Part shown: positions 44,645 to 48,917 of the stretch, in pieces | Position numbering within the stretch: position 1 is the first letter of the stretch | How the letters are laid out: each line of letters begins with the position of its first letter | NCBI RefSeq assembly: GCF_011745625.1 | Contig: NW_027191458.1 | Span: 868,001 to 932,000, forward strand | Reading direction: 5' to 3' | Length of the DNA stretch: 64,000 bases | From: Cladosporium halotolerans | Taxonomy: Eukaryota | Made by a program: the position numbers and the translations under genes | Notes under the pieces: generated by a model | The model's input: the letters and a program-made list of their open reading frames with translations, nothing else | What the model was told of the DNA's origin: nothing | The model's database searches: none

Positions 44645-46705
44645 ATGTCTGAAACCAAGACTTCGAGTCCTCCGGTCGAACGAGAGACCAATCTCGTCCC
44701 AGGCGAGGATGTCAAAGAATCAACGGTCGACGAGAAGGCATCTAACGGCAATCAATTGAAAGACAATGCCCATTTACCTAAGACGTCGACACGCGATTTG
44801 GTCAACCAAGACGAGGAGAAAGCCCTTCCCTCAATCGGGCAAACCGGCAAGGACACGACCGCTGTGATAGATACCGAGCACGATCCAAACGTGGTCGACT
44901 GGGATGGAGACGACGACCCAGACAACCCCTACAACTGGAGCAAAAAGAAGAAATGGATGAACATCGGTATCTTGTCTACCTTGACCTTACTGACTCCACT
45001 TGGATCCTCCTTCTTCGCTCCTGGTGTTCCACGAGTGATGGCGGACTTCAATTCGACTTCAGAGATCACGGCGACCTTTGTCGTCTCAGTGTAAGTCTAT
45101 TGGCATCCTATCGCAACTTAGCAGACGACTGACGCAGTCCAGATATATCCTTGGCTTTGCATGCGGCCCTCTCTTGATCGCACCACTCAGCGAACTCTAC
45201 GGACGACTGTACATCTACCACGCCTGCAATCTTGGCTACCTCGTCTTCACTATTGCCTGCGCTCTTGCTACTAACATGAACATGCTCATCGTCTTCCGCT
45301 TTTTTGCCGGCTGCTGGGGCGTTGCACCCGTCACAATCGGTGGTGGCACGGTTGCTGATCTCATGAAGCCTGAGGAGCGAGGGTTGGCCATGTCTCTTTG
45401 GGCTATGGGTGCGCTGTTTGGTCCTGTCATAGGGTAAGAGCTCTGATAAGTTCTCTTGTCAGAGTATTACTGACAACTTCTCAGTTCGTAATCACCCATC
45501 AGCTCTGTCTGACAAGGTCCCAAATCTGGCCCACACCACGGTCAAACACTAACCCTCCCCTCACAGGCCCCGTAGCAGGCGGCTTCCTCAGCGAAGCAGT
45601 CGGCTGGCGCTGGATCTTCTGGGTGCTCGCGATCGCCATCGCCGTCGTCTCCTTCACCGCCCTCTTCACCATCCACGAGACGTACGCGCCCGTCCTCCTG
45701 GCCCGCAAAACCGCCCGCCTGCGCAAAGAAATCTCCAACCCGCACCTCCGCTCCAAACTCGAGCAGGACCTCACCCCGCGCCAGATCTTCGTCCGCGCCA
45801 TCACCCGCCCCACGAAGCTCATGCTGCTCAGCCCCGTCTGCTCCCTCATGTCGATCTACATGGCCGTCGTCTACGGCATCCTCTACCTCCTCTTCACGAC
45901 CTTCACCTTCGTCTTCCAGCAGGCCTACGGCTTCAGCGAGTCCATCGTCGGCCTGACGTACATCGGGCTCGGCATCGGCAACTTCATCGGCCTCGCGGCG
46001 CTGGGCGCCAGCTCCGACCGCGTCATGAAGGCGCTGGCCGCGAAGCACAACGGCGGCAAGGCCAAGCCCGAGTACCGCCTGCCGCCGCTGATCTACGGCT
46101 CGCCGTTCATTCCCGTGGGACTGTTTATCTACGGCTGGACGGCGCAGAACAGCGACAGCGTGCACTGGGCTGTGCCGCTGTTTGGGACGCTGTTGGTGGG
46201 GATTGGGCTGATTGCGTGCTTTATGGCGATCAATACGTATCTGATCGATGCGTTTACGCTGTACGCTGCGAGCGCGATGGCGGCGAATACGATTTTGCGA
46301 TCGGTGGGAGTCACCTCCCTGGTCTGTCCGGAGATGCATTCGCTGACGTGAGAGCTTCCCGCAGATTCTGGGTGCGGTGTTTCCTCTGTTTGGACTGAAG
46401 ATGTACAACGCGCTTGGTTTGGTAAGTCGCCGCAGACAAACGACTCGAGAGGATATGGGAGCTGACAAAATCGCAGTATGTCTGCTCCCTCCCGTTTGGA
46501 CTTCGTGGATGTTATCCTTGAGTTGCAACGCCAGATCAAATATTCCAACTGCTTCAATTTGGAGAATGCTAATAATCATCTGTACAGGGGTTGGGGCAAC
46601 AGTCTCCTAGCATTCGTCAGCCTAGCTCTCTGCTCGGTACCGATTTTCTTCTACTATTACGGCGAGAGGCTGCGAACCAGCGAAAGATTCAAAGTCAAGT
46701 TCTAA
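44645..46705 (+). CDS. MFS drug:H+ antiporter-1 (DHA1, 12-TMS) containing two stwintrons
   Basis: VDWDGDDDPDNPYNWS, PLSELYGR, GPVIGPVAGG, GWRWIFW, ETYAPVLL, PEYRL and YNALGLGWGNSLL. Intervening sequences are 45091-45142, 45433-45566 (twin), 46304-46364 and 46421-46587 (twin). Confidence 0.93.
45433..45566 (+). other. Spliceosomal twin intron (stwintron) #1, [D1,2]/[A2,3]
   Basis: Structure G|GTAAGA..TACTGAC..TCAG|TTCGT..CACTAAC..ACAG. Internal intron 45434-45484 splits the external donor G-TTCGT. Confidence 0.85.
46421..46587 (+). other. Spliceosomal twin intron (stwintron) #2, [D1,2]/[A2,3]
   Basis: Structure G|GTAAGT..GCTGAC..GCAG|TATGT..GCTAAT..ACAG. Internal intron 46422-46476 splits the external donor G-TATGT. 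Confidence 0.88.
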
Positions 46706-47119
46706 AAGCTGAACAGAAAAAAGGCAGGTTCGAGATGTTTTGGCCGGAAATAGACCATGTGGTGTTAATTAGAGGGTATCGATGCGCCTTCCAACTCCAG
46801 TGCGATCCTTTGTCGTGTGATACACCCGTCTTTGCAGCTTTAATTCTCATACAAATCCTCCAATTCAGTGGGCGAGGATCCACCCCTTTCTGGCATTCGT
46901 AACATGCGCCAGAACCCCTTCGTGGTGCCCGCGTGCTTGCAGTGGTAATGTAGCACATGAGCTGCATGGTCATGCTGGGCCAAACTGCTTGTGCCTCGTA
47001 TATTGCCCAGCCTCTATACGGCCGCCAGACATGATCAGTGGCCGGCTGAGCGCCGAAGCCCATCAAGCCACGCATGAAATCCCGTCAAGAAAAAACTTTT
47101 AGCTTCCCACCCCCATCTC

Positions 47120-47665
47120 TCAGCGCTTGCCCATCATGCTCTTCCTCTGCGCGATCTTCTTATTCCTGCGATCGACATCACTCCCCGTGTTCTTCCTGCT
47201 GCCAATCTGCTTCGCCTTCCTCTCCTCCTTGTCATCCACGATCGTCAACCAATCGTCCGGCACGGCGCCCTCGGCCTTCTTGCCCTTGTAGCCGTACTTG
47301 GGCTTCCAGTCCTGCGCGGCGTCGTCGAACTCCAGCTTGCCGTCGCGGCGCTTCGGCTTGATGCCCTTCTTCTCCGCGAACTTCTGCCACTTCGTCTTCT
47401 CCTTCTCCTTAGGCACGGGCTTCTCGCGCGGCAGGTGCGTGCTGGGCTCCGGCAGCGTCAGCTGCAGCGACTGGTCGTCGGCCGACTTAGTGATGGCGCA
47501 GGTCGTCAGGAGCTGGTTGATCAGGCCCTGGGCGGTGTCGCGCGCGACGGCTTTGAGGGTGGCCTCTTTGTCTTCGGCGAGCGAGGGGAGGGGGTTCGGG
47601 TCGTTGCAGAGGAGGGAGCCGAGGTCGAAGGTGAATGGTTGGGGTTTGGGTTCGAGGTGTGCCAT
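47120..47665 (-). CDS. RRS1: Ribosome biogenesis regulatory protein Rrs1
   Basis: FDLGSLLCNDPNP, ARDTAQGLINQLL, LPREKPVP..TKWQKFAEKKGI and WKPKYGYKG. Confidence 0.93.
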   Translation of the reverse strand: MAHLEPKPQPFTFDLGSLLCNDPNPLPSLAEDKEATLKAVARDTAQGLINQLLTTCAITKSADDQSLQLTLPEPSTHLPREKPVPKEKEKTKWQKFAEKKGIKPKRRDGKLEFDDAAQDWKPKYGYKGKKAEGAVPDDWLTIVDDKEERKAKQIGSRKNTGSDVDRRNKKIAQRKSMMGKR

Positions 47666-48263: not shown

Positions 48264-48917
48264 ATGACTCTGACCCCATTCAACCCGCCCCTGGGCCCCC
48301 AGCCCGTCAACCCAGCCTTCTACTCCCCAACCGAAGTAACCCTCCACATGAAGGAGAAGATGCTCTCCCTGACCGGCGACGACTTCACCATCTCGACGGC
48401 CGAAGGCACGCCCGTGGCGAAGTGCAAGGGCAAGATGATCTCGCTGCACGGCACCAAAGCCTTCACGGACATGCAGGGCAACGAGCTGTTCACGGTCAAG
48501 AAGAAGATGCTGGCGCTGCAGAAGAGCTTCGTCTGCGAGAGCCCGCACGGGCACAACTTCGAGGTCAAGGGCCACTTTTCGCTCGGGAGCAGCAAGTCGA
48601 GCGTGCACTTTAAGAATGCGGCTGATGGCAGGGACGTTGAGCTGCAGTTGAAGGGCGATTTCATCGATCGCTCGGCGACTATTACGTTTGAGGGGAAGCC
48701 GGTGGCGGAGGTGAAGAGGAAGTTCGTCAACATCCGTGAGATTTGGGCTGACAAGCAGACGGTGAGTAGACATCTTCTCGAGACGTGAGGAAAGTCGCAC
48801 TTGGATGCCTTGCTGATTTTGCATTTACAGTATTTCGTTACTGTTGCTCCCAACGTGGATCTCACTATGATTGCGGCAATTTGCGTGTGCTTGGACGAGC
48901 GTGAGAACGAGAAGTAA
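48264..48917 (+). CDS. LURP-one-related / tubby C-terminal-like (DUF567) protein
   Basis: LHMKEKMLSLTGDDFTI, LKGDFIDRSATI and VAEVKRK. Intron 48762-48830 leads into YFVTVAPNVDLTMIAAICVCLDE. Confidence 0.88.

Follow-up and report, generated by a model that had tools for sequence, protein, structure and literature searches.

A probable [D1,2]/[A2,3] stwintron at the final coding junction of a DHA1-like MFS transporter gene in Cladosporium

Stwintrons, or spliceosomal twin introns, in which a splice signal of one intron is interrupted by another intron, have been described as a class since 2013. Here, we analyze a 64,000-nucleotide stretch of Cladosporium halotolerans contig NW_027191458.1 (positions 868,001 to 932,000, forward strand), referred to in its entirety as the window and numbered from its first letter. 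The last coding junction of a DHA1-like transporter gene of the major facilitator superfamily (MFS) in this Cladosporium-like Dothideomycete, at 46421/2-46587/8, very probably holds a stwintron of the combined [D1,2]/[A2,3] type. Exactly 167 nt are missing at this junction from transcript-like contigs, and no single GT..AG cut of the DNA, as it is laid out here, can give that loss. By the logic of this layout and by analogy with experimentally studied elements, the intervening sequence would be excised in two spliceosomal steps.

The element would comprise two U2-type introns, of 55 and 112 nt, that overlap in a single base, G46476, and have a G on each side (Table 1). The first donor, GTAAGT (46422-46427), directly follows G46421. 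A branch motif, GCTGAC (46461-46466), places A46465 11 nt ahead of an internal CAG (46474-46476), and the final G of this CAG is also the first base of a second donor, GTATGT (46476-46481). A second branch motif, GCTAAT (46568-46573), has its A46572 15 nt ahead of the final CAG (46585-46587), right behind which stands GGG (46588-46590). When the sequence was re-read, every coordinate that the original prediction had given for the donor, the branch motifs, the CAGs and the overlap proved to be correct. To judge from these signals, the element has what a [D1,2] stwintron would need, namely a leading G, a complete internal U2 intron, a GTATGT donor that can be rebuilt, and an external branch point and acceptor. 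It likewise appears to have what an [A2,3] stwintron would need: G46588, an internal intron of the form GTATGT..CTAAT..CAG, and a CA ending at 46475 that could form CAG together with G46588.

Translation of the alternative products separates the obvious cut from the correct one. Cutting 46422-46587 in one step gives a frameshifted tail, whereas cutting 167 nt (46421-46587) leads to the conserved ...LGLGWGN... end and the stop at 46703-46705; the earlier claim that one-step removal breaks the frame and that removal of the extra G restores it is thus upheld. A C-terminus of the LGLGWGNSLL type is found in 8 of the 10 homologues fetched, the exceptions being P0001, which is misread (see below), and P0006, which is truncated. 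All two-step GT..AG / GT..AG routes that give the observed mRNA were enumerated, and in one route pair only are the signals of both halves good: removal of 46422-46476 and then of G46421 with 46477-46587, or, in mirror order, of 46476-46587 first and then of 46422-46475 with G46588. The sole alternative pair would depend on GTTGCA as its donor and on GAG, without a branch motif, as its acceptor. The enumeration agrees with the proposal that both the [D1,2] and the [A2,3] route are possible on this sequence.

In the [D1,2] route, 46422-46476 would be removed first, and fusion of G46421 to TATGT would generate the donor GTATGT. From this donor, the 112-nt external intron would then be removed by way of the CTAAT branch point and the CAG that ends at 46587. 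In the [A2,3] route, 46476-46587 would leave first, so that the CA ending at 46475 and G46588 would make up the CAG acceptor of a 55-nt external intron starting from GTAAGT at 46422. The part assigned to G46421 in each route follows the scheme of PMC5587772. Either way, two U2 reactions would take place in series, by intron definition, and both orders would give the same mRNA, ...GGT TTG GGT TGG....

The end product is seen in assembled contigs of three sequencing runs. Spliced contigs of 2586, 2753 and 2650 nt, from runs X20, X21 and X1, respectively, lack each of the gene's four intervening sequences. Runs X20 and X21 belong to one study and show zero differing letters relative to the window, whereas X1 comes from a second study and a second organism, with 51 differing letters over five aligned contig pieces. 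We infer that these three runs are transcriptomes from the absence of the four introns and from the length of their longest contigs, 6.7-18.5 kb, compared with 299 kb in the DNA-like run X19. The joint 46420>46588 is present in all three runs, from both studies; it skips 167 nt with a placement ambiguity of 2 nt, and the three resulting placements read GG..AG, GT..GG and TA..GG, with GT..AG in none of them. The joints 45090>45143 and 46302>46364 in the same gene are ordinary GT..AG. The mature junction foreseen in the original prediction, GGT TTG GGT TGG, is present in the spliced contigs of the three runs, and the single 46422-46587 junction, which would have spoken against a stwintron, is not among the contig joints.

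Because contigs show the end product only, they also match a one-step spliceosomal cut at a non-canonical boundary, either GT..GG (46422-46588) or GG..AG (46421-46587), with the internal CAG and GTATGT as bystanders. Both placements fit the joint, the entire 168-nt element at 46421-46588 has no unusual fold (z 0.00), and in a relative, Cladosporium sp. NU13, the two outer sites may be enough by themselves, as discussed below. Nevertheless, we consider a one-step cut improbable. U2 introns use GU, occasionally GC, and AG as splice-site dinucleotides, GG not being a recognised terminus, and the cases of this architecture that have been tested experimentally are all two-step (PMC5587772). The same layout is encountered at a second site of the gene (45433-45567), and a full internal set of acceptor, branch point and donor is infrequent by chance. 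In 20,000 dinucleotide-preserving shuffles of the element interior, scored for an internal AG, a donor-completing pentamer and a CTRAY branch motif, the layout of 46421-46588 arose 52 times (0.26%) when the rebuilt donor had to match GT[AG]NGT, and 113 times (0.56%) with GTNNGT.

Two further structural ideas were set aside. A local hairpin spans the internal junction (46457-46489) and has a minimum free energy of -17.5 kcal/mol (z -3.45; none of 200 shuffles reaches this stability) in a 46-nt segment picked post hoc; it is a weak feature, and we rejected it as a regulatory device given that its significance is confined to that segment while the whole element has a z of 0.00. Origin by local inverted duplication was rejected as well, the evidence being too weak: shuffles equal the inverted-match score in 26 of 2000 cases for the element at 45433-45567 and in 121 of 2000 for that at 46421-46588.

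Another way to account for the offset is an assembly error, a surplus G either at 46421-22 or within 46587-90, so that the true intron would be a plain 166-nt GT..AG one and the internal CAG and GTATGT would be meaningless. Runs of G are found at both boundaries, the contigs cannot discriminate since the mRNA would be the same in either case, and the C-terminal tail of the NU13 protein P0001 points to a related assembly with one G less. We nonetheless assign such an error a very low probability. In run X19, the whole stretch is present unspliced in a 58-kb contig, built independently (although possibly from the same reads), at a word depth of 34 and with zero indels. P0121, a 75-aa protein called from open reading frames (ORFs), with sources lgn and ena, is 99% identical and occurs on 35 contigs, which may not all be independent of one another. 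It runs in frame from the ATG inside GTATGT via ...H-L-Y-R-G-W-G-N... into exon 5, with one amino-acid difference inside the intron, and this in-frame reading requires four G after CA. The possibility raised at the outset, that raw DNA would turn out to have one G fewer, is contradicted by these two lines of evidence. Moreover, the 5' boundary YTG/GT (the slash marks the boundary of exon and intron) is conserved in relatives, and a second extra G, at 45433/45567, would also need to be an error that falls exactly on an intron boundary.

Two junctions that are out of frame with their obvious splice sites could, in addition, be a sign of a decaying pseudogene, with frameshift mutations at the one-base offsets and transcripts that have no function. 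This is scarcely credible: in two organisms, the spliced contigs are free of both offsets and keep a frame of 548 codons intact, and the C-terminus matches that of the family.

A metagenome scan yielded 80 loci, and both flanks of the 46421-46588 junction could be placed in 71. The intervening sequence is absent at the junction from 61 of these, some of which (L001, L003) look like complementary DNA (cDNA). Eight loci (L052-L056, L058, L066 and L074) have one canonical phase-0 intron of 53-68 nt, with the pattern YTG/GTNAGT...CTAAC...CAG/GGC TGG. In the other two (L006, 3836-3888, and L010, 1558-1613; 57-59% identity), a canonical intron lies 5 nt upstream, inside the preceding Gly codon, so that intron positions at the site of the LGLGWGN motif are discordant across the family. 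Locus L002, which has 74% identity and belongs to the same clade as the window, reads TTG/GTGAGT..GCTAAC..CAG/TACGT..., that is, a 55-nt intron and then more intron that begins with a donor-completing pentamer. Among the orthologs, L002 (TACGT) and P0001 (TAYGT) show the same internal junction as the window, and the eight canonical loci have a plain intron.

These loci were placed in a midpoint-rooted FastTree phylogeny of a query-anchored alignment (residues 121-491; 47 rows with at least 60% coverage and at least 50% identity). The window clusters with P0001, P0006, L002 and L005 (local support 0.94). The sister group is an eight-member clade (0.99) that contains seven of the eight canonical-intron loci, L066 being below the coverage cut, together with the cDNA-like L001; the joint support of the two groups is 1.0. 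In the outgroups for which there is DNA, the intron is absent at the junction.

By its position and by a shared GAGCT(A/G)AC motif, the 5' constituent intron seems to be the counterpart of the one canonical intron found in the sister clade. The 3' constituent intron is absent from the eight sister-clade loci, and G46588 is one G beyond their CAG/GGY TGG boundary. Given that eight sister-clade loci have one plain phase-0 intron at the site, the element fits an insertion into the acceptor of an older intron: the common ancestor likely acquired a phase-0 intron, and the acceptor of this intron was split in the window clade at a later time, when a second intron entered between its A and its G. The order may also have been the reverse, with the stwintron coming first and the [A2,3] internal intron being lost subsequently in the sister clade, as has been proposed for dhaoS (PMC5587772).

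A separate observation concerns P0128, a 74-aa protein from a 982-nt metagenome contig. It is a near-identical ORF that starts inside the 3' constituent intron (window ~46481-46760). Compared with the window, it then passes over about 50 nt, from one short CTG repeat to another, in a stretch that takes in the acceptor and the first bases of exon 5, after which it goes on in a different frame. An environmental relative may have a deletion allele here, or the contig may be misassembled.

The top homologue of the transporter is P0001, a hypothetical protein of Cladosporium sp. NU13 (locus tag MBLNU13_g04698), with 85% identity over exon 3; the next ones have at most 72%. P0001 departs from the family alignment exactly after ...ALGL and runs on as Y-V-S-R, a tail that is explained by a gene model in which the 5' intron only was spliced, so that translation reads into TAYGT. 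The claim that gene predictors miss this structure is borne out in this instance, the public C-terminus of P0001 being wrong from exactly this junction.

The same protein supplies the first of several points that weigh against the twin-intron interpretation. Codon inference from its end, F-R-V-G-A-T-V-S, gives ...CAG followed by two G only before TTGGGG; in NU13, a single cut from outer donor to outer acceptor would then bring the frame back, which the twin-intron routes would fail to do. The arrangement may differ in this nearest annotated relative by a real one-base indel, giving a plain long intron there, or the NU13 assembly may be short of one G through a homopolymer error. On account of this tail, we keep an assembly error under consideration for the window as well, despite P0121, X19 and the second element, all of which argue otherwise. 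The evidence from L002 is of the 5' flank only, for its contig stops 96 nt into the intervening sequence, before the 3' end. Runs X20, X21 and X1 come without an RNA record, hence the designation transcript-like, and X19 may be the window's own source, in which case it is not independent DNA evidence. P0121 bears on the 3' G run only; the two G at 46421-22 are attested by the window, by X19 and by the YTG/GT boundary of relatives. Among the contigs of X20, X21 and X1, none extends over the middle of the interval and no splicing intermediate is found, which is uninformative because contigs drop rare forms. With contigs only, and neither an intermediate nor a lariat among them, the two-step excision of the proposed stwintron rests on sequence logic and precedent.

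If the P0001 tail is taken at face value, gain or loss of a single G at the 3' boundary would decide whether the junction holds a long intron of the ordinary kind, as in NU13, or, with the extra G of the window's lineage, a twin intron that is obligate. This is a speculative idea that we regard as rather unlikely. In Xylariales, the occasional one-step excision of nearly the whole stwintron is described as a 'missplicing' product (PMC12403724).

The gene has a second stwintron-type element upstream of the one discussed so far, at 45433-45567. At the joint 45430>45565, the mRNA contigs lack 134 nt, and the possible placements read AG..AC, GG..CA, GG..AG and GT..GG, again with GT..AG in none. 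A single two-step route pair was found, with a weak rebuilt donor, GTTCGT, and the layout arose in 235 of 20,000 shuffles with GTNNGT. Thirteen loci were read at this junction: eight have one canonical phase-1 intron (G/GT...AG/GT), the plain phase-1 intron being found in all three same-clade loci (L002, L005 and L073), and the other five have an intron elsewhere nearby. The external intron of the window's element is at the same phase-1 position as the intron of the relatives, and for this reason the element looks like the outcome of a recent event in which a 51-nt intron entered the donor of an old one. As an aside, the internal intron (45434-45484) contains an 11-bp hairpin (z -3.51), and the fold of the whole element is not unusual (z -1.92).

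The two elements of the gene show no likeness to each other past a 16-nt stretch of branch point and acceptor. Comparison of the four constituent introns and two plain introns with the 64-kb window and the 80 loci by blastn-short found no further copies, only chance matches of 11-14 nt. Within the scope of the window and these loci, the idea of a repeated element, be it of the sister stwintron or the introner-like kind, found no support, there being no copies, no likeness between the elements and a fold z of 0.00; copies may still lie elsewhere in the genome.

Large sets of stwintrons have been catalogued, including 117 [D1,2] stwintrons in one Hypoxylon genome (PMC9024468) and 288 sequence-similar [D1,2] stwintrons in 14 Xylariales (PMC12403724). 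The closest parallel is the DHA1 gene dhaoS of Trichoderma reesei, for which the same architecture is described and both routes have been demonstrated by reverse transcription PCR (Fekete et al. 2017, PMC5587772). In both genes, the overlap of the two U2 introns is a single G, a further G stands on either side, and two mutually exclusive routes lead (there demonstrably, here as predicted) to one mRNA; both are DHA1-type genes of filamentous ascomycetes, are misread in annotation, and have relatives with a single canonical intron. They differ in site, the T. reesei element splitting WGPLSELY near the N-terminus and the present one separating an L codon from a G codon in LGLGWGN at the C-terminus, and in size, 66+88 nt there versus 55+112 nt here. 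They also differ in evidence, consisting there of cloned intermediates and here of sequence and end product. The WGPLSELY intron position is specific to 73 dhaoS orthologues, with one exception, and the orthologue group is characterized by >64% amino-acid identity to A. nidulans DhaoS (PMC5587772). Identity of our element with the published DHA1 stwintron, or of our gene with a member of the dhaoS group, was considered and rejected, exon 2 (45143-45432) being uninterrupted through PLSELY. The class is known, and this element is an added case at a different gene site from the published DHA1 one.

The [D1,2]/[A2,3] architecture had been demonstrated earlier in the alternative oxidase gene of Helminthosporium solani (Ag et al. 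2015, as cited in PMC5587772), also a Dothideomycete, in a gene unrelated to ours. The 'sister' [D1,2] stwintrons of Hypoxylaceae and Xylariaceae resemble the present element in geometry and in being lineage-specific where relatives have one canonical intron (PMC9024468, PMC12403724). They differ from it in occurring as repeated similar copies; of the present element, no further copies are seen in the 64-kb window or the 80 loci, and as a whole it has no unusual fold. Misreading by predictors has precedents in AN3270 and TRIREDRAFT_43701 (PMC5587772). A full-text search of the literature on stwintrons and DHA1 returned the WGPLSELY-site element only, although supplementary tables could still list this gene, and one on stwintrons and Cladosporium returned no stwintron report for the genus, a single 2014 review mentioning each word once.

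In long introns of Drosophila, recursive (ratchet-point) splicing likewise proceeds through a first splice that regenerates a 5' splice site, which is used by a second splice. The donor regenerated in that process lies entirely on the downstream side of the junction, and all splice signals are uninterrupted, whereas in the present element it is the donor or acceptor itself that would be split by the other intron. An interrupted splice signal is the criterion that separates stwintrons from recursive splicing (PMC5587772).

The host gene (Table 1) has a spliced translation of 549 codons, with the stop counted. The Pfam domain MFS_1 (PF07690) is matched by exon 2 (E 3e-15) and exon 3 (E 3e-17), and this domain, a family-typical motif and the names of homologues are consistent with membership in the MFS and DHA1. 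The best homologues are Dothideomycete MFS efflux pumps, with source names that include MFS transporter, cercosporin MFS transporter CTB4 and efflux pump. Among the MFS families, the placement in DHA1 derives from homologue names and one motif, and we therefore speak of the transporter as DHA1-like. Exon 4 is read in phase 0 from 46365 and ends in ...GGT TTG at 46421. Three stretches of exon 3 (45605-45627, 45855-45889 and 46048-46085) match further contigs, with 0-3 differences per piece, and do so in each of the four runs; these contigs probably represent paralogous MFS transporter genes of the same genomes.

Table 1. Positions in the window of the transporter gene, its two stwintron-type elements and their predicted parts
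Feature	Position	Strand	Remarks
MFS / DHA1-like efflux transporter gene	44645..46705	+	Five exons, 548 aa; joints from spliced contigs
Exons 1-5	44645-45090, 45143-45432, 45567-46303, 46365-46420, 46588-46705	+	From spliced contigs
Second stwintron-type element ('stwintron #1')	45433..45567	+	G45433; GTAAGA..CTGAC..CAG (45434-45484, 51 nt); TTCGT..CTAAC..CAG (to 45566); G45567
Exon 4	46365..46420	+	Joints 46302>46364 and 46420>46588; would extend to 46421 under the [A2,3] route
G ahead of first donor	46421	+	Would be base 1 of the external donor in [D1,2], last base of exon 4 in [A2,3]
Predicted 5' constituent intron, 55 nt	46422..46476	+	GTAAGT, CTGAC (A 46465), CAG 46474-76; would be the internal intron of [D1,2]
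Local hairpin over the internal junction	46457..46489	+	Branch-point region of the 5' intron pairs with bases just past GTATGT
Predicted 3' constituent intron, 112 nt	46476..46587	+	GTATGT, CTAAT (A 46572), CAG 46585-87; would be the internal intron of [A2,3]
G behind last acceptor	46588	+	Would be exonic in [D1,2], final base of the rebuilt CAG in [A2,3]
Exon 5	46588..46705	+	Conserved C-terminal GWGNSLL... segment; stop TAA 46703-05

Downstream of the transporter gene, the minus strand encodes the ribosome-biogenesis regulatory protein RRS1 (47123-47659; PF04939, E 3e-44), and the plus strand encodes a LURP-one-related protein (48264-48788; PF04525, E 4e-19). These neighbors look like an ordinary housekeeping context.

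For annotation, the practical consequence is that standard gene models would give this transporter a wrong C-terminus, and the nearest public ortholog, P0001, shows exactly that error; a second annotation error of the same kind is to be expected at 45433-45567. No concept is changed by the present case, which will not surprise a specialist; it is useful for annotation and as a comparative example. It adds a transcript-supported [D1,2]/[A2,3] element from a Cladosporium-like Dothideomycete with a well-supported sister clade that keeps one plain intron. Should the NU13 reading be true, the one-step 'missplicing' product and its two-step counterpart would be interconvertible by one-base indels. 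Stwintrons would thereby have a way of being born and lost beyond what the stwintron literature that we consulted describes, and the elements at 45433-45567 and 46421-46588 would then make up a natural pair of recent events in one gene. Apart from that, the junction offers a clean example for the published idea that a stwintron is a new intron that has landed in the splice signal of an old one, and also for the published idea that loss of either half moves the intron by one base.

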